Shown here piece by piece: positions 10,328 to 53,378 of a stretch of 64,000 nucleotides of DNA. Both the position numbers and the translations under genes were made by a program. This DNA comes from Squalus acanthias (lineage: Eukaryota). Under the pieces are notes generated by a model, which saw only the letters and a list, made by a program, of their open reading frames with translations, searched no databases and was not told where the DNA came from. Position 1 is the first letter of the stretch. Every line of letters begins with the position of its first letter. The stretch covers positions 75,454,001 through 75,518,000 of the forward strand of contig CM059430.1 of the NCBI GenBank assembly GCA_030390025.1. Direction: 5' to 3'.

Positions 10328-12426
10328 GGGGTAGAAATTCATATATTATTGTAAATCCGTAGCCCCATGAAATTGCAAAAAAATGGCGGCTGCCGCTCTT
10401 TCACCAGCTGGTGGTGGCACCCGTGGCGGCCGCCATTTTCCTCCCTCTCTTTGCGCTGCCGGTAAGAGTTATCACCCTGGGGACAGTGGCAGTTTTGTGA
10501 CGTCAATCGGCGTGCAATGCCAACTTAATGTCACCAATCTGAACTTCGACTCTAGCGCTGAATTCAGTGCTGGGTACTAAGCATGAAAGCTGGCTTACAA
10601 TGGTGAGGCCAGCACATTTTAAAGGGACACACACATCTTTCAGGTAAGTTTGGATTTAAGACTTTGGACTGGGTTATTTTGGTATTATTGAAGTAGTGGC
10701 TTGCTGCAATAGATGTTAGAAGTTTATTTAACGTGTATGGAGTGCTACTGGGCGCTTTAAGGCCTCGGATGGTAAAGGAAGGTCTCTGAGAAGACAGAAG
10801 ATGCTGCAAATACTCAGCAGGTCAGACAACGTCAGTGGAGAGAGAAACAGAGTTCACGTCTAAGGTCGAAATGCTTTCTGACCGTCTGATTATTTCCAGA
10901 ATTTCATGCTGTCATTTCAGATTTACAGCATCTGCTCACCGAGGGAAGAGGAAGACACAGAAGAGGAAGAACCTGAAGAGGAGGAAGCAGAAGGAAGTAT
11001 GCAACCCTGTCGCCCCTTCCTGGTCGTGATATCCAGGATGTAATCGTCAGCCTGCAGTACCAGAGAACCACAGCAACCAATTTCCCTTTCGACATTTTTC
11101 CCACACCTTACCTTTCCTCTGTTACTGACCATCACAGCGTCTGTTTGGCCACAATGATGAAATAAAAGCCTCCACAAAGCAAACCGTCCAATCCAACTTC
11201 ATACATCTACCCATCCAATATGACATCAAGAAATCAGCNNNNNNNNNNNNNNNNNNNNNNNNNNNNNNNNNNNNNNNNNNNNNNNNNNNNNNNNNNNNNN
11301 NNNNNNNNNNNNNNNNNNNNNNNNNNNNNNNNNNNNNNNNNNNNNNNNNNNNNNNNNNNNNNNNNNNNNNNNNNNNNNNNNNNNNNNNNNCTTCTTGGTC
11401 AACCACTGGCTGGGAAGGCTGCATTTCTTTGGTGTGTGAAATGAGGAAGGCACAAGCGTGGAGTTGTGGTGGCGGGCGTTCGGGAAAGCAAGAGGTGCAT
11501 GCATGAAGGAGGATAACAATGAGGATACCAGCATTTGTATCTTATCAGCTGGCCAAGGGATCTGCCATGTCCCTGCCAAGAATGGCCTGCACCGTCTCCT
11601 GCAACTGGTGATGTGAGGTTAGGAATGGGAGATGTGTCTCGTGATTGATACAGATTTTTGGTAGCTATGCATTGGCGTGGGGGTGGGGGGTGTGGGCGAG
11701 TCGCGCAATGAGCAGTGTGTGAGGCTAGTGATGCAGTTCGTAGGAGAATGCTTTTGAAGAGGCATTCACTGACCTTGACCAGTGGTCTGAGGCCATAAGC
11801 TTCTTTTAGCACTCGAGTAAGGTGGTGGAGATGTCAGTGCTAGCAGTGACTGCCCTGGTGATGTATTCCCAAGTCGTTCTTTCAAGAGGGTGTCCTGGCC
11901 CCTGTGGAGTGCTGCGTTCGAGCCTTTGGGTGCCCACTCTCTGGCTTGCTGAACTATTTGTGTTAGTGCTGATGCACTTTTACCATTTTTGGTGTGGCAG
12001 ACAATTCATTTTTAAGAGCTGAATACTGCCATTTGGGAATGATTTTTAAGATATATATGTCATTTTTCTGAATGGCAGCAAGAGCTGAAAATGCAACGTT
12101 TCACTTAATTTTAAATGTAATAGTATTGAATGCATTACCCCTTTAATTTATAGCCCCATTAATTGTCCACAATGCCTTGAAAACGCCACAGCTTCTCTCC
12201 CAGAGGTTGTAAGAAGCGGCAACGCCGACTGTGGATGGGAATTTCGAGTTGGAGGCCTATATTAACGCCAGCAGGAGACCGTAGCACGGTAAGTTAGCTC
12301 TGCAATCCACATCGCCAACCCCCAGAGCCAATTTTTCGACAGTAGCACTGCGGCCATTTTCGGCAGCCATTACCTCGATTTGCATTGATACCGGCATTTC
12401 TGTTGGTGCACGCGAATTTTCCCCCC
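10328..12426. mobile_element. Probable PIF/Harbinger-like deletion derivative inserted in the LINE
   Basis: Imperfect TIRs ggggtagaaattc / gaattttcccccc, 3-bp aga on both flanks; LINE sequence resumes in register at 12427. Confidence 0.55.
11239..11390. other. Assembly gap (152 N)
   Basis: Run of N. Confidence 1.
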
Positions 12427-14878
12427 AGATTTCCAGGATTTTGATCCAGTGATGATGAATGAATGAAGCTATATTTCCAAGTCAGAATGTTATTTGACTT
12501 GGGGAACTTTGAGGTGCTGCTTTTCTCATGCATCTGCTGCACTTGTCCTTCAAGGGGGCAGATGTTGCGGGATTGGGAGGTGCAGTCGAATAAGTCTTGC
12601 CGAATTGCTGCAGTGCATCTTTTAGGTGATACACGCTGCAGCCATTTTGCGCTGCTGGTGGAGGGACTGACTGTTTATGATGGTGGATGGAGTGCTTGTC
12701 ATTCGGGCTGCTTTGTCCTGGATTGTGTCGAGTTTCTTGAGTGTTGATTGAGCTGTACTCATCCAGGAAAGTGGAGAGTATTCCATCACACGCCTGTCTT
12801 GTGCCCTATCAGTGGTGGAACAGCTTTGGGGAGTCAAAAGATAAGTCATGCGCAGCAGAATACCCAGCCTCTGAAATGCGCTTTTAGCCACAGTATTTAT
12901 GTGGCGGTTCCAGTTAAGTTTCTGGCAAATGGTTACTCCCAGGATGTTGGTGGTGAGGCATTCGACTATGGTAATGCCACTCTTTAGTAGGGGTTGGGGA
13001 TGGTCATTGTCTGGCACTTGTGCCACTTTGCAGCCCAAACCTGGATGTTGTCCAGCTCTTGCTGAATGCGTGTATGGACTGCATGGTTACCTGAGGAATT
13101 GTGAATGGCACTGAACACTGTGCAATCATCAGCAAACATCCCGACTTCTGACCTTATGATGGAGGCAAGGTCATTGATCAGCAATTGAAGATGGTTGGGC
13201 CTAGAACGTGATTGGCCTCCAACAAACACAACCATCTTTGTGCTCAGTATGACGCCAGACAGTGGAGAGTTTTGCCCCTGATCCCATTGACGTCAATTTC
13301 ACTGGTGCTGCTTGGCGCATCACTCGGTTAAATGCTGCCTTGATGTCAAAGGCATTCACTCTCACCTTACCTCTCGAATTCAGCTCTTTTGTCCATGTTT
13401 GGAACAAGGCTGTAATGAAGTCTGAAATCGAGTAGTCCTGCGTGACCCCAAACTGAGCATCGGTGAACAGGATATTGGTGAGCATGTGCCACTTCATATC
13501 ACTGTCGACGACACCTTCCCTCCCTTTGCTGATGATTGAGAATAGGCTGATGAGGCAGTAGATGGCGGGCTTGGATTTGTCCTGCTTTTTGCAGACATTA
13601 CATACCTTGGCAACTTTCCACCTTGTCGGATAGGTGCCAGTATTGTAGCTGTACTGGAACATCTTGACTAGAGGTGAGGCGATGTTAGAGCACACGTCTT
13701 CAGCACGATGGCCGGGATGTTGTTGTGGCCCACAGCGTTTGCTGTACCCATTGCACCCAGTCGTCTAATGATATCACGTGATGTAGGTTTTCCTCTCATG
13801 TTGGTTCTCTCACCACCTGCCACAAGCCCATTCTGACAGATATCTTCTTCAGAACTCGGCCAGCTCGGTCAGCAGTGCTGCTAGCGAACCACTCTTGGTG
13901 ATGGACACGGAAGTCCCCCACCCGCAGCACACTCTGAGCCCTTGCAATCCTAAATGCTTTATCCAAGTCAAGTTTAACTGCTCAAGAAGTGCAGTAGGTG
14001 GTATTCAGCAGGAGTTTTCCTTGCCCATGCTTTCCCTGATGCCGTGGGATTTCATGGAGTCCGAAGTCAATATTGAGGATTCCAAGGCCACTTCCTTCCG
14101 ACTGTATACCACTGTGCCGCCACGTCTGGTGGGTCTCTCCTGCCACTGGGACAGGACATACCCAGGGTTGTTGTTGTAGGAGCCTGGGACAATGGCTGAT
14201 GATTATGCGAGAATGAATATGTCAGGCAGTAGGTTGACTAATCTGTGGGATAACTCTCCCAATTCTGACACAATTCCACAAACGGACGTGAGGAGGACTT
14301 TGCAAGATCCACTGGTCTGGGTGTGCCTTTGCCTTGCCCGATGACCAGGTAGATGCCAGGTGCTCAGTCCAGTTATATTCTAGTTTTACTTTTTTTAGTG
14401 GTATAATTATTCTGTGATTTTAGTAACTCCTACAGTTGTACAAAAGTAAATAGGCATTTTAATATTCCATGTTATAATGTATGGAGACGGGAAAATATTT
14501 CTAACTAATCGGCGTTGCAGATATCACAGACAAACACGTTGGAGAAGTGCAATTAAACACAATTTCTCAAAATAAAGTTTTGCATTAGTTTCGTTTCCAA
14601 AACAACTCTGTTTTTAATGGAGCAAACCTAACATCAGAAGGATTTGGATTACATCGCCGAACAATTTTAAATTAACAGCACAAAGAGATCTCAGTTTTAA
14701 GAATAAATTGCTTTTTGCATGACAAACGAAGCTTGCATGGAGCGAATATATCTGTAATGAATCACAGGGCTTAATTCCATTCAGTTTATTTCCTCATTCC
14801 TCATTCTCAGCTTAAATGGACACATCTCCTTAAGACGTTGCTGTTTTGTTCCAACCAGTACAACTCCACCACCACAAG

Positions 14879-14906
14879 TCATTCTGCGTCCCAACACTTA
14901 ATGCAT
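14879..14906 (-). CDS. Putative last coding exon of the activating receptor (tail ...RCIKCWDAE*)
   Basis: Acceptor tttcgtttcacag; phase 2 matches the TM exon donor; AATAAA on minus at 14785-14790. Confidence 0.55.
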
Positions 14907-17161: not shown

Positions 17162-17270
17162 CTTTCAATGCAGTTGATCCAGAAATGATCCGCAATAATT
17201 ATCGTCAGCATCAAAATGACCAACACACTCAATACCAACCGAACAACCATAACTGTCTTGTCAAGGGAAA
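17162..17270 (-). CDS. Transmembrane exon with positively charged Arg (activating-receptor type)
   Basis: Acceptor ttcatttcctag, donor gtaaga; encodes SLDKTVMVVRLVLSVLVILMLTIIIADHFWINCIER, phase 1 to 2. Confidence 0.85.
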
Positions 17271-18699
17271 CTAGGAAATGAATAAGAAACAGAAATGATA
17301 AACGGCGGTTTATATAAAAGGCGGCTGAGCTGAACCTCGACTTTACTCTCCGACGCCAAATAGAAAAATCGACCCCATTGTATTCCTGGTCCTGCACCCG
17401 AACAATGCAGTAGAGATTGAGAATTTCATTACAAAACCGTGAAGTTCTTTAGCTAAAAGTGTTATGAAGCTATTTTAATAGTGTTTTGCAACATGCACTT
17501 CAGAGAAAGGAAGTAAATATATTCTGCCATCCCTGTGCAGCGTTATTTGGGACAATATCCGTATTTTAATGACATTAGAATTCCGAACAATCAAGCTGAC
17601 ATTGGCTGAGACCAGAAGTATCAGATGGACTCGTCTTTTTTTTTCTCCGTAGAGATGTCCTGACTCCGCATTTACACGATAAATGTTCTTCTGGTGCTAA
17701 GCTAATTTTTTTTCCGCCGACGCTACATTGCAATATAAATGCACACTTATTTAAGTCTAATTATTGTTGAAACTCTCGGCACATTACCCATATTAGAAAC
17801 CTCAACAATTAAGGTAATTTTAGCTCGCGCCGTGACGGTGTGGTGAGACTATTGACAAGTATTAACAGCACCTCTCCGGACGGGCTCTGTCTCTGTCTCC
17901 TTCTAAAGGCTGGAACTTCATACAGTCCATTCATGTTATACTTTGTGCTTGTCGCTATGCCGATCAAAATCTCAATCCCATATCTACACCAAGTGAGGTT
18001 GAGAGTCCCCGGGTAAAACTCAACGGTTTTTCACGCTAGATTCAGAGCATAGAAATTTAATTCTGGTACTTTGGAGAAAATCCTCAGCTGAGTTGGTGGA
18101 ATCGTCGGAAAAAAATGGTTAAGAAACAGCATTTGGGCTATTTTGTTCTTGCGTTTACCAATTATCTTCTCTTCATTTGGAGCCTTTAAACGGGATAGCA
18201 TTAATGTATCAGTGTTGAATGACTACCGCAAAATTGTATTAATTACATAAAAAATAATTAATCAAGAGAACTGCGCATTTGAAGCGCAGCTTCGTTTATG
18301 TTCGAGAAACTTCACTGCATAAGATAAATTCATATCAATATGAATTGACATAAATGCCTGTTCAAATGTCCCTTGTCTATTGTATTATTATGACTTGACA
18401 GTATTGGTAAAAACTTCAGTTGTTACAAATCCAATATAACTTTCAAAATTGGAATGTTGTTGCGTTTTCAAATAACAGTCATAGTTGTCATGCAATTTTC
18501 CACTAAATATTCTGAAGAAATATCAAGTCGGTTACAATATCAATAGACATTGTCTCAGTTGTATCTTGCTATGTCTTTGATGTGACCTGATTGCCTTTTG
18601 TCACACCTCGGCAGATAAACAGTCAGGGTGATTTAAATGTAGTCGTCTGCTTTTGTAAGTAACACATGCATTGTTCTCTATCTATATATGCTTTGGCGA

Positions 18700-19320: not shown

Positions 19321-21788
19321 ATAAGAAGATAAACCGTGATCGCAGAGATTTTATTCGTGAGTTTTGGCCCATTGGCACATACCATTCTCGCCTTTAGTAC
19401 ATAGCGTATCCTTTACTTTTAGCTTGGAAATTGACTGCAGATGTCACTTTCGTGTGGGGAGATATCGATCCCGGCAAATCCAACACCTTCCTGCAGAGGT
19501 TATTGAGCCCAATACCAAATCAGTTTCTAAGCAGAAGTTTTTCTGGTGATATTTTATTCCGTGGCAGCTGTAATTTTGCGTTCGAAATCGCCAGAGCTGA
19601 TCGATGACTATCCAATATCACTTGGCTTTAAGCTGTGGGCTACAGATTGGTGGTTCGGGGAGGGACGCAATTGCTATTACAAACTGGAACACTTGTATGT
19701 TTCTAGAGGGTGAATAATTTTAAATATATGTCCATCTGAAATTATATTAGACATTATTTTATTTCCTACTCCGTGCCAGATAAAATCGGTTAATTTGACA
19801 GTGCGAACACACATTGGTTGAAAAAATCAACAAAATCATTGAACATCATGGTAGTTTTGTAATTTCAGCCTTAAATTTGACGACTGGAGATATGTAAAAG
19901 CAGAGCTGCTGCGGCGCAGAATAAATTGGGGACGACTTTAATCTGCATTTAGGGCGTACAAAATAACTCTGTACAACCAAATCGGAACTTGAAATATTTC
20001 GAATTGATTTTAGGTTTCATATTTCAAATGTGTCTCTTCTATTCTTCAACACAAATAACATGCGACGCAACTAGACAAGGTTCCGATATTTAAACAAATG
20101 AGGAAAAAATTATCAGCATGTAAAGCTGCAAATGGATAGTGCGGATATTAGTCGGTGCACGCTGAGGGGTGGTAAAAGAGCCCAGTTTTTTTAAAAATAA
20201 CATAGGCTTTCATCTGTTTATTTTTAAATAAAGTTGTAGATTTTCAACTTGCCACACGGGAGTGACACTGATGTTCAGAATGGGGCCACCTGTTATGCTC
20301 ACAATCCTCGGGCTCTTTCTACGATGCAAGCGTAATATTAAGTATTTATTTTAACTATTTAGAAATTAGACGACCGGATCTCCACTTCCATTGACTTCAG
20401 TGGAAAGGAACATCCTGCGTAGATTAGAATGAGATACTCATTCAATGAAGCTGATGGGCGGAAAATTGTTCACTGACAAAATGTCCAGCACCCATATTTA
20501 TTTTGAAATAACGAACATTTGAGGTTGCTTTCTCCACCCAGTTTCACTTACCAGAGATTCACTCGGAACTGAGCGACAATCGCAACTGGCAGGAAATAAA
20601 ACGGTAATTTTAAATAAAACTCGAAGTAGGAATGAGGGAGATACAATTAACCAGATATAAAAAGTGGGAGAGGGAGAGCCGAGAAACGCAGAGAAAGAGC
20701 AGAAAATACCTGTGTAAATAATCCCGAGGACCCATATGAACAACAGTACAGAGCGGCCAGACATATTGAACAATACAAATCGCCATCTTTGCTGTGAATA
20801 ACAACGGTCATTTGGGAAAAAATGGTTTGTGCATGATCTGTCATAAAATGACACGTAATATCAAAAGGCAGAATCGGAGCTGGCAAATGAGGCACTAATT
20901 GAAGTGCGTAGGGTGATGTTTCACGAAGCCCCATTCGGTCGGAAGTGCACCGTGTATTCCATTCCGCCAACCCAGTAACTCCGCAGCTCATCCAAATGAA
21001 TTCCGGGGTGAGAAACAAGGATTTACTAATATTGCGCTTCGGCTGAGAACCGTTCAGCTCTTGAACGCAAGTGAATATGAGGATGAAAACTGGATGATGT
21101 TGCAGCAATTATTATGCTGTAGCAAATTAATTTAATCAAATGATTTTATGACTAAAGCGACACTTTAAGACACTGCTGTAATGACGTGGTGTGGCCTGCA
21201 ATTGCATTAATGTGCTTTCCTGTCTACAGCTGGCCATAGGATCAAATATTCACCTCTAAACTGGTTTCACAGAAAGGCCCAATGGTCAGTGGCAATGTTA
21301 GCAGAGGCCTGGGACTAGAAAGTAAAAATACATCCCGGGGAATATCGAGGCTGATGCAGAAATCTAAATAATGTTAGATCGTCAGATCGCTTAAGGTGGA
21401 GACAATACATAAAAAATGTATATTAATAAGTGACAATCATCCTACCGCATGCCATCAAAAGATTGATAACCGCTGATATTTTAGCTGCTTCCGGAAATAA
21501 ATTGTTTTTTAAAAATTGCGTATAATTTCTGCATTGAACGTATAGTTGCCACATACCACATATTTAATGACATAATACAGTATTGTCAAATTAGCCACTG
21601 CAGTGGATTTATGCTCCGTGTGGAGTCAAAATGAAGCAGTCAGCGACTATCCGCTCAAAGGAGTGTCACTCGGCTTCTCTCGGAGTCGGGTCCTGACTGC
21701 CGGTCTACACTACAGGTTTGCCTATGGTGCTAATTGAATTGACTTCCTACCGACGCTAAACTTGCAGTGTAAATGCACACTTATTTCA

Positions 21789-24700
21789 CTACAGTTCAAG
21801 GTGTTGGTGAGAATGTCGGCACGTTACTTTTTTAGAAATCGGAACAATGAATCTCTCACTAGCTGTATGCGTCAGTGTCAGGTGAGACACTTGACAAGTA
21901 TAAACAGTCCCGCTCCGGACGGGCTGTGTCTTCTTCAACAGGCTGGAAACTTCATATAGTCCGTTGATGTTCAACTTTGTACTTGTCACTATGCCGATCA
22001 CAATCTCAATTACATCTTTATACCAAGTGAGGTTGAGAGTCCCCGGATGAAACTCATCCGTTTTACACACGATATTCAGAGCAGAGGTGTTTAATTCAGG
22101 TACGTTGGAGAAAATCCTCAGCGGAGTTGGCGGAACTGTAGAAATAAAACAGGTCAGAAATAGCATTTGGTCTATTTTGTTCTTGAGTTTACAAATGATC
22201 TTCTCTTCATTTGGAGCCTTTAAAACGGACGTCATTAATGTATCTGAGTATTGAATGACTGACGCGAATTTTTTATTCATTACATACAAATTAATTAACT
22301 AAAATATTTCGGAAATAATACAATGTTTTACTTCTTGTAGGCTTCGCAAAATCCCCCAGAAAATAGAACAGAGCCCTAAAGGGAGTGATTTTTGGACTTT
22401 TCATACAAGCTTGGGATGATGGGGCCTAAGTGAAGTAATTTAATGTAAAAACCTAAAGATCAGGGAAGAAAAAAAACCTGAGGAAACTGACGTGTTGAAT
22501 CTTACTGTTGGGAGAGAAACCTTTCACAGACACAAGCTGCGAGGGGCGTGGCCGGGCAGTGAACAGATCAAGCTGTCTGGGAATTGCTTACACTGCAAAT
22601 CCTACCAAGGTGCAAGAGACAAAGCAAAAACTCACAAACACATTCAAATATGAATCCCCAGGGGCAAACAAGATGCTGGAAATCTAAAAACGATGCAATG
22701 ACAATAAAACTTAGATCACACAGTTTCATAGCCATTATCCCATCAAAAAAATCAATCAACCAGGTATCCACAGAACAAATTAAAAAACCCGCCAACAGTC
22801 CTAGGACAATAAGGTGGAGATTTGGCTGTGTTTAAATCGGAAAACGATCAAGTCATGTTTAACACTGAGCAAAAGCCATCGGAACTGGCAAGCCCGCCAA
22901 AACTAGACAATTGGACTTAGCAAGCTTCATTTGCAACCAAAAGGAATCCGTTTTAGTAAGGGTTATTTGGGCGCAAAAAAGAAACAGTATAATTTGAATC
23001 CTGTGCCATAATCTCTCTCTTTTTCGGACTGGCTGATGATGCGGACACAGTGCAAAACCTACCACAAGCCACGAGGAAGAAGGCCAGAAGAGCAGCACGC
23101 AAGAAGAAACCAGTGCGACTGCCTCAGTGACCATCTGACACCTCGCAGCAACAAGGGCCTTACGGAGTCTTTTTTAAACAAAAGACTCTAATATCCTGTC
23201 AAGGATTCGTTGGTGAGCATTATCCCTGATCTCCTGAAACTAAAAACCTAGCCAGATAGTGGGATCTTTGGGAGGGATAAGGTTTTGTTTGATATATTGG
23301 GCCAAAAATTGATCCCGCTGCACGAGAGTATGCAGTGCGTACTCTCGCGTATTCTCTCTCCAATTGCCGATTTTCTGCATGCACTGCGCATGCGCTGAAA
23401 ACCGGCACTTGGTCTTTGGAAAAGGGGGCGGTTCCTCGGTGCACCGCGTGCGCGCTACAGGCTGCGCGCACGCTGTGCACTTAGTGCTTTGGACGCACAG
23501 GTAAGGACGGAAGATTTTAGAAACGAAAAAAGGAGGAGTAAGACCCACTTTTAACAAGGTGAGTAGTGAATTAAGTATTATTTTGAATTTTTTTTAACAG
23601 GTATATCTTTTTTAGAGACTTTAAAGAAAGGTAAGTTTATTTTTATAACTTTTTAAAAGATTTTAAATTTTTTCAAAAATTTAATTTTTTATTTAAAATG
23701 TTTAATTTATTTAACTATACTTATTTTATCAATGTGATGTTTTTTTTTAAATTTAATTGAGGTTTAGCTGTTATTTTGGGGGTGTGTAAGATTCATAGCT
23801 TTCACAGCACATATGTGAAACTTATGATTGGAAGATGGTGTGCTGCCATTGGCTCTAACTGAGTCACGTGATCCCACAGCTCGCACGAATTCACTACCCC
23901 GGCGGGATACGCAAGCACTGCCCAGCTGATGTCTATAACATCAAGTTCGTGCGAGCTGGATCTGAAAAAGCCAACCCGGAGTGAGAGATCGCGCCTGCTC
24001 CTTACCCCCGCGGGAACAGAGCGAGATCAATTTCTGGGCCATAGACATTTCCCTCGCTTGTACCGTGTGCTCCCCAAATCTTTGTTTAAGTAATAAGTAT
24101 GTTCCAAGTTTGTTACCTTTTCTTTTAATCAAGTAAAATTTCTTTCATCAGAATCTGTCGTTTACTGCAATTTTGTTCACAACCCTAAATAAGTCCAAAG
24201 TCTAGGAACCGGAGGGTTGTGGGAGCGATTAACATACCCCTTACACTTCTATAGCAGTTTCTAGCAATATATTGCAGGGCTATGGGGAAAGAGCAGGGGA
24301 ATGGGCCAATCAGATAGCTTTTTCAAAGAGCCGGCGCAGGCACGATGGGAAAAATGGTCTCCTTCTGTGCTTATCATTCTATAACTTTTGAATTTTGATT
24401 TTTATCAATAAACCGCCAATTTAAATATTGTAATGCATCAGACCAATAGTTTAGCATGTAACAGGACGAAACATCGTGCACAGCGAACCTTCAAATCTAA
24501 TCCTGTCCCCCTCCAAAAAAATCGATTGTTATTTCAAACTAAAAAAACGCTAGTTTTGTGTCAGTTACAAAGTTTGTGTGAAATGCACAAATTCTTATTC
24601 GGCAACATTTTTTTTTAAAGTGAGGAGATTGGTTTTGCAGAATTTGAAACAGGTCATCATCTAAGACGGGAGAATTTGTAGTTTGGGAACAAAACTATAT

Positions 24701-32899: not shown

Positions 32900-34100
32900 C
32901 AGGCGAGATGAGCTCCAGCAGCAACAACACCAGCCATACCAGCCGCAGCAGCCTTCTCCACACCGATCTGCAGCTCCACAGGAGAGAGGGGATGTGCATG
33001 GGCTGCTCCTCGCCAGAGGTGATTCCCCCGACATCGGGTATAGAGGCTGAGGATTAGATTCTTGGACATGACTGAACAGCAGTGCTTCAGGAGGCTAAGG
33101 TTATTGCGTCAGGTCGTGGCAGACATTTGTAGCTTGCTGGAGGAAGACCTGCTGCTAACTGGACCTGATGGACATGCGTTACCAGTGGCTGTCCAAAGAC
33201 ACCACTGCACTCAACTTCTTTGCCTCCGGCTCCTTCCAGGTATCTGCAGCATACATTTGCAGGATCTTACAGTCGGCCGCACATGGATAGATCACCCAGG
33301 TGACCGATGCCATGTTTTATAAGTCAGTTTCACTTATGTTCACTTTGCCACTGATGAAGCCTGTCAGACTGAGCAAACGCTCGGCTTTGTGACACTGGTT
33401 GGCTTCCCACATCTGCAGGGCGTCATCAACTGCACGCATGTGCCTATCAAGGCAACCTTAGATCAAGCAGGAGTGTTCGTGAACCAGAAGGGATTCCACT
33501 CCCTAAATGTGCAGCTCGTCTGCAACCACAAAACGATCACCATGCATGTGTGTGCCAGATTCCCAGGGATCTGTCATAACTCTTTCCTCCTGCGCCAGTC
33601 CAACATCCCTCAGCTCTTCACACCTGCGACCAGACTCGCTGGCTAGCTGCTTAGAGACAAGGTCTATGCACTGATGGCGAGGCTGATGACTCCCTTGAGG
33701 AGGCCAAGCAATGAGGTCAAAGAGCAGTATAATCAAAACGATATGACGATCAGATGTGTAATAGAGCAAGCAATCACGATGCTGAAGATGCGCATCAGAT
33801 GCCTGGGCACATCTTGAGGAGCCCATCAATATGGACGAGGCAGCTACTCCAGAATTATCATCGTATGCTGCGTGCTGCACAACATAGCGCAGCAGCGAGG
33901 ATTGGAGCTGCAGGAGCAGCAAGGTGCTTCTTTGGAGGAGGATGAGAAGGAGGAGCAGGTGGAACACGTGGAGGAGGAGGAACCTCTGGTAGAGAAGGCA
34001 CCAGCAGCGGCAAACATTGCTGCCTGGCAGGCACTGGATGGCCTCATAATGGCACGACTTGGTTATGTTGCATCATTGCACCGGTATGACAACAAGAACT
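32900..34100 (+). pseudogene. PIF/Harbinger (HARBI1-like) DDE transposase, inactivated
   Basis: ALNFFASGSFQ, GFPHLQGVINCTHV, NQKGFHSLNVQLVC, ARFPG..HNS, IEQ..MLKMRIRCL, CCVLHNIA; catalytic Asp positions read Asn; stops and frameshifts. Confidence 0.9.
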
Positions 34101-34356
34101 TCCCCCCCCCACCACACCAACACCACAAAGCAGTCCTAACATGGCCAAAATGTTCCTGTCACACACACCCATTGCTCAAGGTTAAGTAATGTCCTAACAT
34201 TTACTCGAAATGACAAGGTCACTTCCCAGGTAGAAGGCAAAAAGGCACAAGACGGGAAAGTGCTGCAAAGAAATACATTTTGTGCGTCATAAACAGAACT
34301 AATATTTTGAAACACACCCATGTGGATACCTTTGTTAGCTCCCATTGTGTCATTTT

Positions 34357-35730: not shown

Positions 35731-36437
35731 TTAAAGAATCGTGAATTGGAAGAAATTATGAATTATAAGCAATAATGGCTTTATAAAATCATTAAGCTCA
35801 CCCGAGCTGAGCAGAAAAGATAAGCCGCTGATACAGCTATTGTACAAAGAGCTGAGGTCGTTGCAAGTTCATAACACAAAACAGGCCTTCGAGTGGCATA
35901 CCTCGTGCTGAAAAGGGGTTGAGTAAGAAAAACAAGCTGTGTAGGAGGAAGTGGAGGAGATAAGCAAAGGGATGGTTTCGATAGACTGGGTGAGATGTGC
36001 TACAGGTTCATATTCCTCCGTGAATGGTCAATTGAATGGGTAAAGGTGATTAATACAAGTGATTGGCGTGAGGTATCCACCAGCCCCTCAAATAAGTTAT
36101 ACAAACGAGCAGCCGAGAGGGAAAGGCAGGCAGAAAGGGGTATAGATTCCACGGGGTGGATGCATGCTAGCTTCGGCTTACCAACTCTGCCAGCTCGCGA
36201 GATGACCAAATAAGAAGAGACCGCTGCGGTAGGCTGCAGGGATTGTAAACTGCCATTCTGCCTTCTGCCATCCGTCCATTCCGGGCCGGTAAACCTTTCT
36301 CACCTGTTACCGGTTGTATGTCTAGGATGTCTAACCTGATTTAGCTATATTTGAACTACCGCTCCTTAAAAAAATGCCCTAAGACTCCGATGACCCTTTG
36401 GGTAATCGGTGTGTGCCTGCGATTCGAATTCTTACAG

Positions 36438-36455
36438 TGGTGTCAGAAGTGGGAT
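36438..36455 (+). promoter_or_regulatory. Primer-binding site complementary to tRNA-Leu 3' end
   Basis: TGGTGTCAGAAGTGGGAT, one spacer base after the LTR end ...TTACA. Confidence 0.9.
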
Positions 36456-39400
36456 CACATAGCGGGAGCCATACGGACCTCGGCATTGTGAGAGCCGGGA
36501 AGTCTTGGTCGACCGTGCATGATCGACGCTTAGACTGGGTATGGAACTCTCTGAGAGAGTTAGAGGAAGCGTGTCAAATAATTGAAAACAGATATACAAT
36601 GGCGTTTGCATATCACCGGGAACACTTGATAGATAGCCTGACAGAGAATAACAGCGCGCCTGGGGCGTCGGACATTTTAAGAAATCTAGAGGAGTATGCT
36701 GGGAACTATGATTGCATTCTTGACAGACGTTCTGAGGAAGTCCAGAAATCCAAATAGAAGCCGAAACACGGCCGAGATAAGTTACTCTACGGAGCACACT
36801 TCTCCGCCTTGCAGTTAAACAAAATAAATAAAAAAATAAAAGAACAGAGAGTTATGCTACATAAAGAAAGCGAAGGTTGGCAGGAAAGCATTGCCTTCCT
36901 ACACAATCAGTTGCAGTGGGAACAGAAAGGACATGACGAGGCGCCTTATAAACGGAAAAAGCTGGAACAAATATTAGAACGAAATATCGAGTTACAGGCA
37001 GAGAATTCAGACTAGGTGAGGAGTTAGAAGATGCAAGGGGGGTTCTGAGGGAGTTAGAGGATTGCCAAACCATCGCCTCCCCCAAAGCAGAACACGCACC
37101 GTGTTTAGCAAAAATGCAACTGCTTCAGGCACATATCGGACAACAGCGGGCACTAGTGATAGCTGTCTCCAAAATCAAACCATGAGATCCAGCCTCTTGT
37201 TGGGACAACATATCTGAGGACCCCACACCCTCTGCTCCCCCTCCACCGTACAATGATGGCGAGGCAAACAAAGCAAACAAGGCAATACCAGTGTGTGTCG
37301 TCAGCTGGGCCAATGCTGCCCGTCAGCCTCAGCACCAGACTGAAGAGGAGGTGGAAGGTGTCCAAGCTTCCTCTTCCACTAACGACGAGTTGGAAATGAT
37401 CACCACAACCACGCATAAGGTTCTTACCGCTGTTGAGGTTAGTGCTCTAAAGGATGACCTAGGGACGGTAGACATGAACACCAGACAGCGCGCTGGAGGA
37501 TTTTTAAGGTCACTCATCCAGAACTAGATGGGGGCGACCTTAAACAGGTCCTCCTGGCTGTGTGTTCCTCAGAATTGAAATAAGAGATGGATCAGGATGT
37601 TCTGGAGGCAGGTGCGATACAGGATATTGAGATGGACCTATGTAGAACACTAGGGAGGAGGGCATCGACTTCCACCAACTCTTGGCTAGTACCAAGCAGT
37701 GCCCTACCGAAAGCCCGAATGCCTTCGCGCATAACGTCCATGACATTTTCCAGTGCTGTAGTGATGGCAGAGGTGAATCTTTAAGCAACCGGGCCTCAAA
37801 ACCTTCTTTTTCAACGGGCTCCACCCATTAGTCCGTAGCCCGCTGGGCGTTTACATCTCCAAAGACAAACCCTGGGAACAGCTGTGCACCCATTCCTGGA
37901 CTGCTTAGCAACAGACACGTGCCAATATTCCCAGAATACACACCAAAGTTGAAATAGCAGCCGTCGAAGACCAACTACTCGGCCAGAAATCAGGGCCGTC
38001 TGAAACCCCTGCACCAGAGAAGGGAGCTCCGGTACGCTGCTATCTTTGCAATCACCTAGGCCAATATGCCCATTACTGCCGCATTCCTCTGAGACACACT
38101 GGTCCCGACTCGATGGAGCAGAGCTTGGAAAGAATGGAGGCAGCGATATGGGCCATGCAGATTAGCCAAGGTGCTCGACCGGTTGCCGCGGTGCATCAAC
38201 AACCGAGCAAATGACAGATCGTTCACCTCCCCTGTGACTCCTGCAGGCTTCTCAGGGAGAGATGACTTCCCCTCTCCGATACGCTAGTGTACGGAGACCG
38301 GTAGTCCGCACTGTTGATCCTGGAGGCCGTCAACAATTAACGTTATTTGACTCTGGTTCCTCAGCCAGCATCATTCAGGATCCCTACCCCGCCCCTACGA
38401 AAGGCGTGCCCCAAGTTTTATCGGGCTTTGTCAATTGAACCCAGGCAACTACACAAGGATCCCTTCCCTTAGAGATAGACTTGGACAGGGTTTAAGTCAC
38501 GGTCTAGTCTCCCATTTATATGGCCTTACATAATGAGCAGGGACTACTGGGAAGTGATGTGCTCAAAGGTTAGAAAGCAGTAATTGATTATGGCAACAAT
38601 TGTATCTGGTGGAACCTTAAAAACGGACCCCCTACTCCGGTGTCTAGCGTGCACTCGGTATTCGCAAATAAATATGATTACCCCGAGGTACAGAGTACCT
38701 AGAGTCAGCACCGTGTGTATTCGCAAACAATAAACATGATTGCGGCAACATGACTGAACGTGAAGAAATTAACGAACGAGTACATGCTCCCGTAAAGCAG
38801 TAGTCCAACCCAGCCGAGAGTATGCCCTATATTCGGCCACCAGGGGATTAGGGAATAAGTTGCTGAGACAATTTAACAAGCGAACAAAACGAAACTTAAA
38901 GTTGAAAGGGAAACTGAAACGTCCAGCTTCTGTGCCGAGAAAAATAAAACACAAGATTGCTGATTGAAAGGAACCTTAAAAGAAATGATGGAATTTCAGT
39001 TTGTGTGAAAGTGTGTGTTACAGTGCGGAAGTTTACCTGACTATGAATGTTTCGAAGCGACAAGCTGAGGGAAGCTCCGCCGTCTTTTTTCCTTTTCTGT
39101 AGAATCTATAACGTGTGTTTAAATATGAAACAATTATTATTTCTCCAGTTATATTTAGTATTTTTACAATCATTTAGAAAATCATCTGAAGAAAGTTCCA
39201 TAAGAAATATCATGTAATTTGCTGCTTTCTGCAAGCAGGTGCTTTTTTGTTTTGTTTTATCTGTGTTGTATCGTGTTTAGTTGATAAAATATTGTCCTGA
39301 ATTAAATTGGAATTATTGAAGTAAACGAAACACAACTGTCTTTTTTCGATCAGGATTTTTTTTAAATTTAGGTGAAGTGACGCAATTGTGTGAATCTGAC

Positions 39401-45798: not shown

Positions 45799-48700
45799 AT
45801 GTTGGCGAGTGATGTACTTCAGTGCCTCTCTGTTCTGGGATTCATGTTCACAGGTACCTGTTGCTTCTATACCTTGCTTTCTCGCTAAACCGCAGAGCTG
45901 CTTATCATCCATTTGATACAACATGTCTTATTGGCATTTGCTGACATTGCCTGACTTACTTACTCACGCGCTTTTTCACCTGTAATATTCGCACTAATTC
46001 GGTTTTGATTTTCTTTTCCGATAGGCTCCTGCGAAAATTCGCTCAAAGTGACTCAGCTCCCTGAAGTCGCGAGCAGCAACACGGGTACAAGCGTTTCCTT
46101 TCATTGCTCAATTCCCTTATTTCAAGACGGACCACCGGTGAACGTGTACTGGTGGAAACAGCGTGATAATAAATATCTAAGCACTGGACCTGATGACAGA
46201 AAAGTAACTGGCTCCAAAACTAAATTCAGCGGCTTCCTTCAGATAATCAATGTGACTTTCCAGGACTCGGGAGAATATTATTGCACTGTCGCCCATCGGG
46301 GCAGAATAGTTGGAAACGGAACGGGATCCAATTTAACTGTCTGGGGTAAGTATAAAAGAAGCGGCGAATGAGATCGATGTGACAGTATTATTTCACGATT
46401 CCAAGAAATTCTCTATTGTGCTTTGTAGGATTCACAATGCAACTTAAATCCCAGTCATTTTATGTGTATATATTCAAATTGCACTGTTGACTGCTACTCG
46501 TTACATGCTAATTTGTAGTACAATATTACAGCAATATTAATCAAGACGAGCAGCATCGGATTTACCCCAAGTACACAGTAAGCAAGTATACAAAAGGCGT
46601 TTGAGTTTTAAATTGCAGTGTCCGTTAAGGATCTGTATAATGGCTGGCGCGTATATCCGCCGCTGTAAGCACCGATCTTACCCTATTTACTGGATTCTTT
46701 TGTCTGCGTTGGTTACGGAGGGAAGACTGTTGATATTGGGACTCAGATTCGCATATTTATAATTTAATTCTCCACAAGTTAAGATCTTTGATAGCCAAAT
46801 TGCTAATGGCTAAAGTCCGCACTGTGTAGCTGGATCCTCGGACCCCTTATATTAATCATCATTGCAGCCTCCAGAAAATATGGTTTAGCACCGAATCTTC
46901 GTGCCATAGCACCTTTCACTTGGGTAAATTATACTTCCTCATCAGATGTTATGCTCAACGGGATGGAATTTGTCCACAGCTGTACCGCAAAACAAGCGAC
47001 AATGAGTCGGCAGCCCGATATACACCACACTCAATGTTCTTTCCCATTAGAAAAGAAAATCGGCGAGCTGTAAAAGAGGCGGCCTATTCGCTGCAATCCG
47101 GTTTTCGCCTGGCTAAAGCAGTTAAAGTTACCGCCGATATAAATTTGACTTTTATGAAGATGCCGGTTACGACGTAGGTACCAATAGCGCACAGTGAACA
47201 CCAGGCCCCCACCACTACCCCAACTCCCCGCCCACATTGTGCTGTCAGGAATGGGCTGGAAGAAAGACGGTGGATGATGTCCATGTAACATTATTTTCCT
47301 CCATTTTTCTAGTTCCGCCAACTCCACTGAAAATTGTCTCTCAGGAACCTGAAAAGGATTCACCTGCGACTCTGACTCTACTTTGCACAACATCTCCCTT
47401 TTACCCGCAGAATATCAGCTTCACTTGGTATAAGGATGGAACCAAAATTACACCAAGAATAAATAACATTAATCAACCAAATACCGATGGACTATATGAA
47501 GCTTCCAGCCGGTTGGAAGAGACGCAGACTGTCGAGACCGGGACCGTTTATACCTGCATGGTGTTTCACAGTGCCCTCAAAATTCCAGCCACGGTCACCC
47601 ACATTGTCACCTTCAGGAACACAGGTAATATTTTAGATAGAATCATTGAAACTTACAGCACAGAAAGAGACCATTAGGCCCGGCGTGCCTGTGCGGGCTC
47701 TTTGAAAGAGCTGTCCAAGTTAATCCCCACACCAGCTTTTTCCCCATAACTCTGAAAAGTAGTCCTCTTCCAGTACACGTCGAATTGCCTTTTGTAAATT
47801 CCTACAGGAAACTGGTTCCACCAACCTTTCTGGTAATGCGTTCTGGATCCTAACAATACTTCGTGGGAAAATAATTCTCCTCAATTCACCTCATGTTTTT
47901 AACCAATAATTTTAATCTACGATTGATGGTTAACGACTCACTCCGTACATAACTGCAGGCCCTTATCATTGTTATCATCCTGGTAAGCCTCCTCAAAACC
48001 TCTTCAAGAACTTGACATCCTTCCTAAATTGTGGTGCTCAGAATTGGACACAGTACTCCAGCTGAGGACTAGTCAGTGATTTGTCAAGGTTTAGCATGGC
48101 TTCCTTGTTTTTGCATTCACAGCCTCTATTTACAAATTCAATCATCCCATGTGCTTAATTAATCACCTTATCATCTTGCCCTTCCATCTTCAAAGATTTG
48201 TCAATATGCACCCCAGGTTCTCCTGCCTCTGTAAGACCCTCAAAATAGAACTATTTCGATTATACTGCCTCTCCATGTTGTTCCACCCAATGTGCACACT
48301 TCACTTGCCCGCATTAAATTGATCCAGACATGTGTCTGCACGTTTCACCACTCCATCTATGTCCTGCTGAAATCTTCTACTATCTTTTTCACTATTTACT
48401 ACGTTGCCGAGTTGTGCATCATCTGCAAACTTCAAAATTGTATTCCCTGTATCCAACTCCTGGTCATTGAGGCATATCAACACAAGCATTGGTTTTAAGA
48501 CCTATCCATGGGGGACCCCACTGCATAATTCTCTCCCGTCAGAAAAGGCATTCTTTCACCACGACATTCTGCCTCCTTTCACATAGCCAATTAAGTACCC
48601 AAATTACCACCATCCTTAAAATCCTATGCGCCTCTATTTGCCGAATAAGTCTATTGTGAGTTACATTATGAAATTACTTTTTAATGTCCATATATCTTCT

Positions 48701-51700
48701 GAACTACCTTCATCAAACGTCTCTGTTAATTCATCAAAGAACTTAATCAGGTTAATCAGACATGATTTTCCTTTAACAAATCCATGTTGGTTGTCGCTTA
48801 TTAAGCCATGCGTCTGTGAGTCAGAATTAATGTTGTCCTTACCAAGGGTCTCTAGTAATTTTCCCACCACTAACGTTAGATTTGCTAGACTTTAGGTAAC
48901 TGGTTTATCTATCGCACTTATCGTGCAAGTAAACGGTTTGCTGTGATCCATCCCCCCACCATTTGTTTACTTTTACTCAGATACAATTATCCGCGGAGTT
49001 CGGCCAGGTGTTGTGCTCCATGGTCTCTGCAACTGCTGTTCGACATCTTCTGCCCCAATGGAAGTCACGGTCCAGGTGTGGAACTGAGATGTGGGACAGT
49101 ATCCCGCAGTAAATCGCACCCTGTGATTCCAAGTCGCAACATGTCGGAGCTGGACAGCTGTCTCCAGCATTCCTTAAATCGTGTTGTAATCTTCAGCAAG
49201 CTGTAAATTTGGCAAGTGCCGTCTTTAGCCCTCTAATAAAACAACAAACTGAACATGATCGAAGAATTCAGTGGAAATAAAAATGGGGAGTAATGCACAT
49301 CTATCTTCCGATTGGCTATCGCCCATTTTACTGTAATGCACAATGTCAGAATTACTCCCTGATATCGCAGTCTTATTTCAACAAGAAACAAGCATGAAAT
49401 CACATTTGAGTTTCAGCCAAGATAAAGTAAAATTAACTATTCTTTAAGCATGAAAAATTAAACAAAGACGAACATTTTTATTGTGTTTCATAAAATTGTA
49501 CCTTAATGCAAAAAATAAATGGTAAAAATTATTTAAAATATTTTAATGTTTCTGATCTTTTAAGTCATAGTCTTATTGAATTGAACAGTTTAGGGATACA
49601 TGTTGATATATTTCATCTCAATCTCGAAGGTGGTGAGATCATCCATTACTTGCTGATTTCTGCAAGTGCAGGGGGCGGGTTGGTAGTCCTGGTGCTGTCT
49701 GTCATCATTGGGAAGCAATGTGTCTCCAAGAAAAATAAAGGTAAGAAAGAATTTAGACTTTTTACTAAAGCAAGAACAACTTTCAAAGAGAGTGTGAACG
49801 AGAACTTCCTGTTACATGCACAAAGAATGTTAGTTGATTGCATTTAAAAGGTTCAAAGAACAGTTACTCTGTCTCACAGGAACAGGGGCGTTTGCTGAAA
49901 GGGTTTTTTAACTATATGGGACGCTCCACAGTCACCCCAGTCTGCTTCATTTAAAAAAATTGCAGCACCTGATGTATTTAATATGGGTTTAATCACTACC
50001 GGTGTAGCGGTAAATTCGAATTTCTGAAATGTGGTGGAATTTTCCGAGTTCCCCCAGCCAGCGGCAGCGACTGGCGGGATCTTTACTGGAAAATCTATTT
50101 TAATTTTTTGCCAATTTACGCCCATTCGGGACAAGGAACGTAGAATTGTGGGTAGTTCCCCCCGCGATTTTCCAATCAGGATCGCGCAGGGTCCGAGGCA
50201 ACACCGGCATCTGAAAAATCCATTGTCAAACACAGGTCGGAAACCAACAAATCCTTCAAATGTGATATCTAGATCATTTTATACCTTACATTGAATCTAC
50301 CCGAAGTGTCTTTCCAGGCTGAGTAAATGCCTCATTGTAAAGTCATGAATTTAATTCATTACCAGGAGCGCTGAACGATGGCGAAAGATCCGACTATCGC
50401 GAACAGCCGGTATGTGTGTATGATTCATTCTAATATATCTCAGATATTAACATATATATAACAGTAGTAATCTATTTAAAGCAATATGTTGTCACGTTAT
50501 AATCTATTGCTCTCAAGATTCATACAAAAATAGCGCAGATTGAATTCAGCGCTTATGGAAAAAATCTTCGTCAATAGGTCAGAGGCAGCTGAATTTTAAA
50601 TGTCATCTGCTGATGGCGAATAAACATATTGCTTAAAAGTTACCATCAACCGTAATTAATAATAAGGAACTGTTTTTGCCTCCTGGACACAGCGGACAGT
50701 ATGTTGGCGGTAGTCCATAATACTGTGCCCAATAACTAACTCTGAACTTAATCCACAGTACGCGAGTTCAAATCCTATCATTGTAGTTTGAGATTTTGAA
50801 TTCAGGTTTCAAAATATGTTAATAAATGATGTTATCTGAAGCTGTGGGATTGTCTTAAAAAGTCAGGGAATGAAACCTGCCATTCTTACCCGGTCTGCAC
50901 TCTATGTGACTCCAGTCCACACCAAGGTGGGTGACTCTCAACTTCCCCCTGAAGTCGCCTCTGAATCTCGCCACCAGCAACTTCTAAGGGAAACCAGGGA
51001 TGGGCAACAAACGCCGACCTTGTCAGCGATGCCCTCATCTCGAGAATTAATACAAATTCCGGCACAATATCACAGGCTGGCGGTGCCAGTTAAGCGATTT
51101 GTTGTTCCCGGAATTTTGGGTGAATTTGCGGAAATGTTAAGAAGACGTGGACGAGTAATCGGCATTTCCTTCAGTCGCCGCATTCTCCCGTCATAATATC
51201 CATCTGAATTTGGAAAACCTCCAATGTCAACGCCCAACCTTCACCTCCTTGGAAGGAATTTGCTGCTTCACCGCACAGGCCGCGAGACCAAGCAAGCACG
51301 GAGATGCTTATCGAAAATTGAAGTTATTTGCCCGCCATCTCCCACGTATTGAAATCAATAGACAGAAAAGAGTTGGCATAAATTCGAAGTGTTCCAATAT
51401 ATACCGCCTATTACCTGTGATTACCGATCCCGGGAAGCGTCCGCGAAAATTCCAGCCAACAAGAGAGTTATTCCAACTAAATCTGATTCTTTCAGTGTAT
51501 ATGTCTTTCCTGATATCTGTTCGACATTTGTTTTCCATTTGTATCCCTAGTTCTAATTCATCTCCGTGATTGAGTCATCAGGGTCTGCCTTAAAGTGAAA
51601 GACAGATAGACATTGATGTAGATAGAAATATATAAATATAGATATATATATAGTTATAGATATAGATATAGATATAGATATTGTGACATTGTGGATGAAT

Positions 51701-53227
51701 TAATAGCTGAACATAAGATTCCATGTGTAGTCCAGAAGCTGAATGACAAGCTTTAATATAATCTCTTGTATTCCATGGCCTTATCCTTGATTGCAGAATT
51801 ATAATCGTTGCTTACTTTTCTGGACATTGAAAGTGACCTGACTCTTGTTAACCCCAGACCCCTTTATGTCTCATTGTGCTAATTCAATTCCATCCATTGT
51901 ATAACTACGATACACATTTACAATTATGCCTAAAGCTCAACTTTATAAAGTAGCTAAATGGTTTTACTATTTTTTTTGTGCAACGTAAGTGTAACTTGAA
52001 GTATGGAAACCTTGTCAGATGGAGATTATTTCAACCAGACTACTCCTATCAATGGACTTCAGAGATGAACATTGATCCTTTATTTTACTTTACTTTCTTA
52101 AAATGTAAATTTCGAGGGATTTCCGTAACTTCGGCGGGACACCCGTGGAAGTCCCAGACAAACGACGTAAAGGGCGCGTTCATCCTATTATACAGTTTCT
52201 ATGGGGATTCTGGTGGTCATCCAGCAAACTGAGATCAGGAGACCGGTTGTAGCTCCGCGCATTTTGGGGGTTGATTTTCGTCTTTACCGTCTGGGCGCTA
52301 AGCAATGCATGGGCAGAAAGGGATATCTGGTGGGGAGGATCGCTCGTCCTGAGGGAATTTCTTTGCATTCCTTTCAATGATAGGAAAATTCGCGGGTTCT
52401 GTTGCCAGCAGCGGCTCCGCAAGATTTTCCAATCCATGCTCAGCCCTGACGATGCTTCAGGTCCAGGCGGTAAAGAAGAAACCTCCTTTCACCCTCCCCA
52501 AACTGTTCGAATATTTGTGATAATGCGACGGATTCCGCCTGCTGGGCACTGACGGCGCGGACACGGAGCACAAACAAGGAGGTTGTGGCAGCCGTGACTG
52601 ATATTCCATCCATTCATTTATGTGATGGACTCTGGACCTGCTGTTTTCGGGCCTGCTCGCATCCTTCTGCGCAGGGAGCGCCCAAACGTGGTATCTGCCC
52701 TAACAACATAACAAGATATATTTTTCCGTTCCTTCCATGCAGGGAGCAGCTGATGTGATGGCGTCTTATGCCACATTAGATCTGAACAAGTCCCGGAAAG
52801 GTCCAAGAGCGAAGCATCAAGAGAGGACAGTGTATGCCCAGGTAGGGCTCAGGAGCAGAACAAAGAGTCACAGATTACCTGTAATTAATGGGCATGCGGG
52901 ATAGTGTAAGAAAGACCTTGAATAGTACTATGGTAATCTTTTATATTTAATTTGTAATTATATCCTCGCTAATTCTGCGAGGCTCCAGCTATTCCAATGA
53001 ATGTGCTAAACATTATTCTTTAAATAACTACAATATCGAAGTAATGATATTCCCAATAATTGATTTCACAGACCAAGCAACGGGCGCCAGATCATAAGTT
53101 GACCTACGCTGCACTAGACATGACAGGCTTCAAGAAAACATCAAAGCCTAATGTTAAGGATAAGAGCACGGAGTATGCTCAGCTACAGATGAAAAATCAA
53201 AGAGCAGACGTTATTTACACGGAATGA
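45799..53227 (+). CDS. Gene A: inhibitory VJ-C1 Ig-superfamily receptor, SIRP-alpha-like tail, 365 aa
   Basis: Exons 45799-45853, 46025-46345, 47313-47624, 49630-49740, 50366-50409, 52743-52841, 53072-53227; all GT-AG, compatible phases, 1098 nt open; leader, V, C1, uncharged TM, tail with ASYATL, TVYAQT, LTYAAL, TEYAQL, VIYTE. Confidence 0.9.
46025..46345 (+). CDS. Gene A V-set exon with germline J-like G strand
   Basis: LKVTQLPE..SFHC..VYWWK..LQIINVTFQDSGEYYC..GNGTGSNLTV; ttttccgatag / gtaagt. Confidence 0.95.
47313..47624 (+). CDS. Gene A C1-set exon
   Basis: [43 protein letters not shown]. Confidence 0.95.
47640..48900 (-). mobile_element. Decayed CR1 LINE in gene A intron 3
   Basis: QHGFVKGKSCLINL and LKFADDAQL on minus strand. 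Confidence 0.8.
49630..49740 (+). CDS. Gene A transmembrane exon
   Basis: YLLISASAGGGLVVLVLSVIIG followed by basic KQCVSKKNK; donor gtaaga. Confidence 0.9.
50690..51050 (+). mobile_element. tRNA-derived SINE (same family as 2750-3188)
   Basis: gagttcaaatcc B-box; tail gggatgggcaacaaacgcc...gcgatgccctcatc. Confidence 0.65.
51610..51682. repeat. (ATATAG)n-type microsatellite
   Basis: gatatagatatagatatagata. Confidence 0.85.
52743..53227 (+). CDS. Gene A cytoplasmic ITIM/ITSM exons (52743-52841 and 53072-53227)
   Basis: GAADVMASYATLDLNKSRKGPRAKHQERTVYAQ | TKQRAPDHKLTYAALDMTGFKKTSKPNVKDKSTEYAQLQMKNQRADVIYTE*. Confidence 0.9.
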
Positions 53228-53378
53228 AAAGCCAAGTAATATTGGCCTCCAATGCGGAACCCGTTTTATTTGTGTATATCTGACTAGAGGCTCATTAACC
53301 TAATAACAATAACAGGGAAATTAATTGCAACAATTCTAAGATGAAGAGTGGGAATCTCCAGTTTAGAAATAGTTAGCA

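Follow-up and report, generated by a model that had tools for sequence, protein, structure and literature searches.

The exon at 17162–17270 on the minus strand of the window, the whole 64-kb stretch of DNA analysed here, is, judged from its sequence and that of its relatives, genuine and conserved, and encodes an anchor of the activating type in a family of shark paired receptors. Anchors of this type are spread across sharks, end in short tails free of signalling motifs and have inhibitory paralogues. In the reading we prefer, the exon anchors an activating receptor belonging to a paired V-C1 family of immune receptors, would pair through its Arg with a signalling adaptor and would be used by the neighbouring gene B. 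With both of these last parts included, we give the reading an even chance.

The locus and its transmembrane exon

The window contains three related gene units (A, B and C) amid reverse-transcriptase repeats, and no gene outside the family was recognised within its 64 kb. Two broken open reading frames, at 33044–34189 and 36383–38214, we take by eye to resemble a DDE transposase and a zinc-knuckle retroelement gag. The features of the locus are given below; anchor residues are numbered from the Arg at position 0, and P0002 is horn-shark XP_067905015.1.

17162–17270, minus strand: transmembrane (TM) exon; 109 nt, entered in phase 1 and left in phase 2; outer-end Arg followed by Asp (+17) and His (+18)
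14879–14906, minus strand: tail exon, terminal; eight codons and a stop; no ITAM or ITIM; AG acceptor; 6/8 residues identical to the end of XP_067905015.1
25873–25927, minus strand: gene B leader exon; 12/18 residues identical to P0002, 9/18 to P0001
25463–25783, minus strand: gene B V exon; VJ-type with a GxG motif; open; phase 1 to 1
21828–22135, minus strand: gene B C1 exon; open, 308 nt; phase-0 donor without G at −1; Pfam C1-set E 1e-9
20710–20764, minus strand: gene C leader exon; intact; 12/18 residues identical to inhibitory P0001, 8/18 to P0002
20552–20585, minus strand: gene C V remnant; 34 nt left of a 321-nt exon after about 287 internal nt were deleted, with a frameshift; matches the gene B V exon at its two ends
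17788–18101, minus strand: gene C pseudo-C1; acceptor lost, three stops, one frameshift
45799–53228, plus strand: gene A, inhibitory paralogue; leader 45799–45853, V 46025–46345, C1 47313–47624
49630–49740, plus strand: gene A TM exon; uncharged
50366–50409, 52743–52841 and 53072–53228, plus strand: gene A tail exons; four ITIM-like tyrosines

A sequence-only reading of the same DNA had reported an anchor peptide at this locus, and that peptide, VVRLVLSVLVILMLTIIIADHFW, is found there in a minus-strand frame. The exon is bounded by an acceptor with a pyrimidine tract and TAG in phase 1 and by a strong phase-2 donor, AAG/GTAAGA. Its hydrophobic core contains no Lys. The Arg is the third position of its most hydrophobic 19-residue span, in agreement with the earlier placement of an Arg near the outer TM end. 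An anchor profile trained on the TM segments of seven shark proteins, with the window exon excluded, scores the exon at 46.9 bits (E 1.8e-13), and the runner-up among 2139 six-frame segments of the window scores 9.2 bits. Because this separation is obtained with an exon-free profile, the exon is not a chance match.

The tail exon, overlooked by the sequence-only reading, encodes a tail without Tyr, and an AATAAA polyadenylation signal lies at 14790, 89 nt past its stop. The receptor tail is short by either route, because unspliced read-through past the TM-exon donor meets an immediate stop. Downstream of the tail exon, at a distance of about 3.5 kb, the assembly has a gap of 152 N (11239–11390).

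Gene A is intact, with horn-shark XP_067905935.1 among its close relatives. The last of its tail exons can be aligned to the tail of SIRP-alpha at 36–43% identity (pairwise E 4e-5 to 9e-5); a search of the gene A tail against solved-structure (PDB) sequences returned no match. Gene C begins about 1 kb beyond the gene B C1 exon, and its own C1 is destroyed, as had been claimed. The gene C V remnant retains both splice sites and could therefore serve as a poison exon if spliced into gene B transcripts.

The gene B V domain matches Pfam V-set with E 1.3e-5 and 25.8 bits, slightly below the curated cut-off of 26, and its AF2 model has a pLDDT of 92. It is 86/106 identical to P0001 and likewise 86/106 to P0002; matches of the V exon are shark proteins in 8/8 cases, at identities of at most 81%, which marks the window as cartilaginous-fish DNA. 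Gene A, gene B and the shark relatives all have one C1 per V, and the V-C1 unit is seen in an AF2 model of P0022 (pLDDT 89).

The arginine anchor among shark V-C1 receptors

A profile search of 1.84 billion proteins recovered a large shark family, most of whose members, among the best 150 listed, carry an uncharged TM segment and an ITIM tail. A second search seeded with Arg-type members gave 18 matches, a seeding from which the ratio of activating to inhibitory forms is not readable. Scored with the anchor profile, 19 of 193 proteins reach at least 30 bits and the remainder at most 12.4; eight members outside the training set score 30–64 bits. With four isoforms or cluster mates dropped, there are 15 Arg-anchor V-C1 receptors from nine shark species: Heterodontus francisci, Carcharodon carcharias, Cetorhinus maximus, Scyliorhinus canicula, S. 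torazame, Mustelus asterias, Chiloscyllium punctatum, C. plagiosum and Heptranchias perlo. We take these species to span five shark orders.

Across the 15 relatives, position 0 is Arg in 13 and Gln in two, +17 is Asp or Glu in 11, +18 is His in 14, Asn at −3 occurs in one (P0078, which has NxxR) and Trp at +20 in none, counts that are partly by construction in that the pattern helped to select the set, which the gap in profile scores also bounds. GPVI and LILRA have an acidic residue at the same +17 spacing from the Arg. The C-terminal cap had been described as acidic and aromatic; the acidic part stands, and the aromatic part gives way to a conserved His.

An outer Arg without the Asp-His cap is found in P0003, P0025, P0032, P0039, P0062 and the batoid members P0189 and P0190; these may be activating forms that arose independently from inhibitory anchors. 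The one named chimaera match, P0017, is inhibitory (20 of 147 unnamed matches were looked up). With the TM segment and tail of P0002 as query, only P0002 itself was found among six candidates, and the ESM Atlas gave no lead (best feature score 0.79). Outside sharks, the turtle poly-V receptors P0059 (XP_037733860.1; Arg, Glu at +17) and P0104 (XP_053904980.1; ITIM), automatically named NCAM2 and FCRL5, resemble an activating/inhibitory pair; XP_037733860.1 scores only 11.3 bits with the shark anchor profile.

Quick LG+G4 trees were built from short alignments and have many open forks (C1, 74 rows and 101 columns; V, 57 rows and 102 columns, from which SIRP is absent since its V domains failed the cut-off of the family V profile). 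In both trees, Arg-anchor proteins are spread over several separate clades in which ITIM members sit next to them; P0082, for instance, joins P0075 with support 99, and P0182 joins P0188 with support 96. Monophyly of the Arg-anchor proteins is nevertheless strongly rejected on the C1 tree (p-AU 2.7e-9, a cost of 275 log units; 15 versus 35 ITIM rows). Kin partly share an anchor type, because the C1 tree has 9 changes of anchor label against a shuffled mean of 12.9 (range 8–15). The scatter looks like that of paired receptors swapping ectodomains or anchors, with the moving part not told by the trees; exon shuffling or gene conversion may have carried the anchor from one ectodomain lineage to another.

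Use of the exon and its probable partner

Gene B is most likely the owner of the TM exon, because its exons are open, no other TM exon belongs to it and its leader groups with that of a horn-shark gene carrying the Arg anchor. Specifically, no second TM exon was found between the gene B C1 exon and the TM exon, and the P0002 gene model runs leader-V-C1-ArgTM-tail, its leader being of the B type. P0002 is identical to the window at 86/106 residues in V (81%), 70/101 in C1 (69%), 21/35 in TM (60%) and 6/8 in the tail. Three leader sites, read by eye, unite gene B with P0002 and gene C with P0001, and none favours another grouping. The two C1 copies of genes B and C are sisters on the C1 tree (support 91), which suggests old paralogues with homogenised C1. 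The P0002 model is itself imperfect: residues 1–149 match a reverse-transcriptase repeat and upstream DNA, and its start is probably mis-annotated.

The junction between C1 and TM is the weak point. The gene B C1 exon ends in phase 0, one base shorter than that of gene C at the same point. Of the 13 donors in genes A, B and C, 12 have G at −1, and the exception is the donor of this exon (21822–21835, minus strand). As assembled, the canonical splice from C1 to TM is out of frame and runs into a stop after 14 codons. An early stop upstream of the last junction marks a message for decay, and decay is likely here because the stop lies 67 nt before that junction. The missing base adjoins a run of six A and reflects either an assembly error or a real lesion; long-read consensus errors are common at such runs, but nothing in the gene A exons points to frequent indels of assembly origin.

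Gene B could reach the anchor by three routes. The first is leader-V-C1-TM-tail, if the absence of the donor base is a fault of the assembly or of one allele. The second would be the same order through an AAG acceptor 14 nt inside the TM exon, which is in frame and gives 268 aa. The third would skip C1 and join V to TM in frame, giving a single-V receptor of 170 aa. Read-through of C1 gives a secreted form of 240 aa. Two further ways of restoring the frame were considered and rejected: the gene C V remnant has a stop in the frame needed, and no phase-1 donor downstream of C1 precedes the stop, the one weak site, 32 nt upstream, being placed so as to truncate the last strand.

The earlier claim that gene B uses the exon thus holds for the B-type leader, the open exons and the lack of a rival TM exon, and fails for the canonical splice. 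With one gene B splice site out of frame as assembled, we lean only slightly towards gene B using the exon by splicing across the dead gene C.

The sequence-only reading had also taken the clean exon as a sign of selection, a conclusion that cleanliness alone does not carry. In neutral simulations with roughly chosen indel rates, the exon alone survives at a divergence (d) of 0.13 with a frequency of 0.41 (0.31–0.65 for d = 0.06–0.18). Survival falls to 0.20 (0.11–0.45) with the donor and tail added, and to 0.054 (0.02–0.24) when the Arg, the Asp or Glu, the His and the uncharged core are also kept. The C1 of gene B compared with the pseudo-C1 of gene C gives dS 0.28, dN 0.22 and dN/dS 0.77 over 96 codons, which fails to show strong constraint on gene B; the divergence of about 0.13–0.14 per branch assumes an even split between the two copies. 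The leader, V and C1 of gene B total 684 nt and carry one lesion, where the gene C rate would give 10.9 (P 2e-4, or 0.13 if the lower 95% limit of that rate is used), and gene B departs from its relatives at 1/22 and 1/23 conserved columns. Amino-acid changes at 80 polarisable columns are C-only in 19 cases and B-only in eight. The cleanliness of the exon is suggestive only alongside these intact exons.

The strongest competing account, possible but doubtful in our view, is that the anchor type is real and this copy is orphaned: the base loss in C1 is genuine, gene B is a young pseudogene or encodes the 240-aa form as a secreted V-C1 decoy, and the TM exon has survived by chance. The out-of-frame canonical splice and its weak donor fit such a history, as do the simulated survival of about 0.2 for exon, donor and tail, odd gene B substitutions such as Gly to Cys in V, and a C1 branch length of 0.13 against 0.08–0.10 for P0001 and P0002. 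It is opposed by gene B exons far cleaner than those of gene C, a neutral survival near 0.05 once motif and splice sites are counted together, the retained tail exon and polyadenylation signal, and the two in-frame splice routes that are left.

In a receptor built on this anchor, the Arg near the outer face of the membrane would pair with an Asp in the transmembrane segment of a dimeric ITAM adaptor belonging to the FcR-gamma/CD3-zeta class. Such pairing would bring the receptor to the surface and let it signal through Syk-family kinases; this whole sequence of pairing, surface delivery and signalling is likely. In the accessible part of PMC6557307, FcR-gamma-coupled anchors are defined by NxxR, a DYT motif and an acidic C-end and are traced to amphibians and birds, and partners of DAP12 use Lys instead. 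FcR-gamma restores surface expression of Xenopus XFL2 (excerpt of PMC2413239), and the sections of both papers available to us link outer-Arg anchors with acidic C-ends to FcR-gamma. The adaptor set is noted in teleosts, with no mention of sharks, in the part of PMC4536121 at hand. Our protein searches returned no adaptor sequence.

The sequence-only reading had assigned the exon to the FcR-gamma type of GPVI, LILRA, OSCAR and NKp46. The Arg position, acidic end and short tail bear this out, and the two remaining motifs do not: the window exon has Met at −3, where NxxR calls for Asn, and DKT at −7 to −5 in place of DYT, which occurs in 0/15 relatives. A functional receptor with another partner for its Arg and Asp-His cap (DAP10 or DAP12, a co-receptor, or self-association), its likeness to FcR-gamma anchors being convergent, is accordingly worth weighing, and we consider it unlikely. 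Consistent with it, beyond the missing motifs, Gln replaces Arg in 2/15 relatives whereas His is kept in 14/15. Searched against PDB sequences, the anchor profile gives chance serpin matches only (E at least 0.11) and retrieves no FcR-gamma-coupled receptor, although full-length receptor anchors are expected to be few among solved structures. Against it, the Arg sits at the outer end, unlike the central Lys of P0197 and of DAP12 partners, and the shark member P0078 does carry NxxR.

That the exon still belongs to gene C, whose intact leader and donor splice in frame to TM and tail, giving an anchor-only peptide of 63 residues that might recruit adaptors with no ectodomain of its own, is very improbable, since the V remnant with its good splice sites frameshifts the message to a stop at 32, an intact 55-nt leader would be unremarkable under neutrality, and no such short protein was seen in searches not tuned for one.

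Comparison with known paired receptors

The locus had been called SIRP-like; on sequence comparison the term describes a resemblance, and membership of the SIRP family does not follow. SIRP proteins (bird P0133, bat SIRP-alpha P0143 and SIRP-beta1-like P0197) have a VJ-type V followed by C1 and occur in paired forms, as in sharks, and gene A matches their inhibitory four-tyrosine ITIM tail. However, the SIRP ectodomain is V-C1-C1 and that of the shark family V-C1, and the activating SIRP form has a central Lys (P0197) where the shark form has an outer Arg. The contrast with SIRP-beta1 drawn earlier is right in that bat P0197 has a central Lys, and may compare non-orthologues. The shark Ig domains are about 21–29% identical to those of SIRP, no better than to other V or C1 proteins, and SIRP C1 domains lie on long branches of the C1 tree. 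Against solved structures, the family profile ranks UrIg2 second and SIRP-alpha fourth. Fold searches returned tied generic Ig matches, both for the V-C1 model (top Z 16.2, rmsd 3.2, 193 residues aligned) and for the gene B V domain (top Z 14.8, rmsd 1.9, 98 aligned); the top 50 of each search contain no entry titled SIRP, which excludes nothing.

Within sharks, the closest counterpart is P0002, which has the same family and anchor and is probably the orthologue of gene B; in its model, unlike in the window, TM follows C1 with no broken second leader-V-C1 in between. P0002 and the other 14 Arg-anchor proteins exist as automatic gene models under names such as tapasin-like and NCR3LG1-like, and several shark members are automatically named SIRP-alpha-like by NCBI. 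No description of the shark V-C1 family, or of an Arg anchor in sharks, was found in the literature searched; subscription papers and genome-paper supplements may list the genes. VJC1 genes reportedly treated by Ohta et al. in 2019 may bear on the identity of the family. NKp30 has an Arg anchor and no C1. NKp30, UrIg and UrIg2 have a germline-joined VJ exon, as does the shark family, and UrIg2 has nine C1 domains where the shark family has one (available portions of PMC10751288 and PMC12227049). SIRP is unmentioned in those portions of both papers, and ITIM is absent from that of PMC12227049.

Arg-anchor coupling of the FcR-gamma type is documented back to amphibians in the parts consulted of PMC6557307 and PMC2413239. 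A conserved shark version would place paired activating/inhibitory signalling of this kind in early jawed vertebrates, on a non-rearranging VJ-C1 ectodomain of the kind discussed as an antigen-receptor precursor. The Arg-anchor proteins are thereby named candidates for shark NK or myeloid receptors; the value of the single window exon is lower because gene B may be broken. More tentatively, the shark anchor may be homologous to the tetrapod NxxR anchor, date to the jawed-vertebrate ancestor and, in sharks, have been joined many times as a mobile module to antigen-receptor-like VJ-C1 ectodomains within a large undescribed paired-receptor family. The locus would then be a hand-over in progress, in which gene B splices past a dead gene C of inhibitory type to reach the anchor and perhaps forms a new C1-less, NKp30-like single-V receptor.

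The comparison with tetrapod NxxR anchors was made through published motif descriptions, as far as PMC6557307 and PMC2413239 could be consulted. Like the NxxR module (LILRA, NCR1/NKp46, FcalphaR, GPVI, OSCAR, TARM1 and Xenopus XFL TM1), the shark anchor has an Arg in the N-terminal part of the TM segment, an acidic C-end and a short motif-free tail, and sits on varied ectodomains beside ITIM partners. It differs from the module in lacking DYT and, in all but one of 15 proteins, Asn at −3, and in having a conserved His at +18 and a V-C1 ectodomain. In Xenopus XFL, the tail shares the TM exon, whereas at the shark locus it is on an exon of its own. Thus, although we do not class it as a member, the shark anchor most likely works in the same way as the NxxR module.
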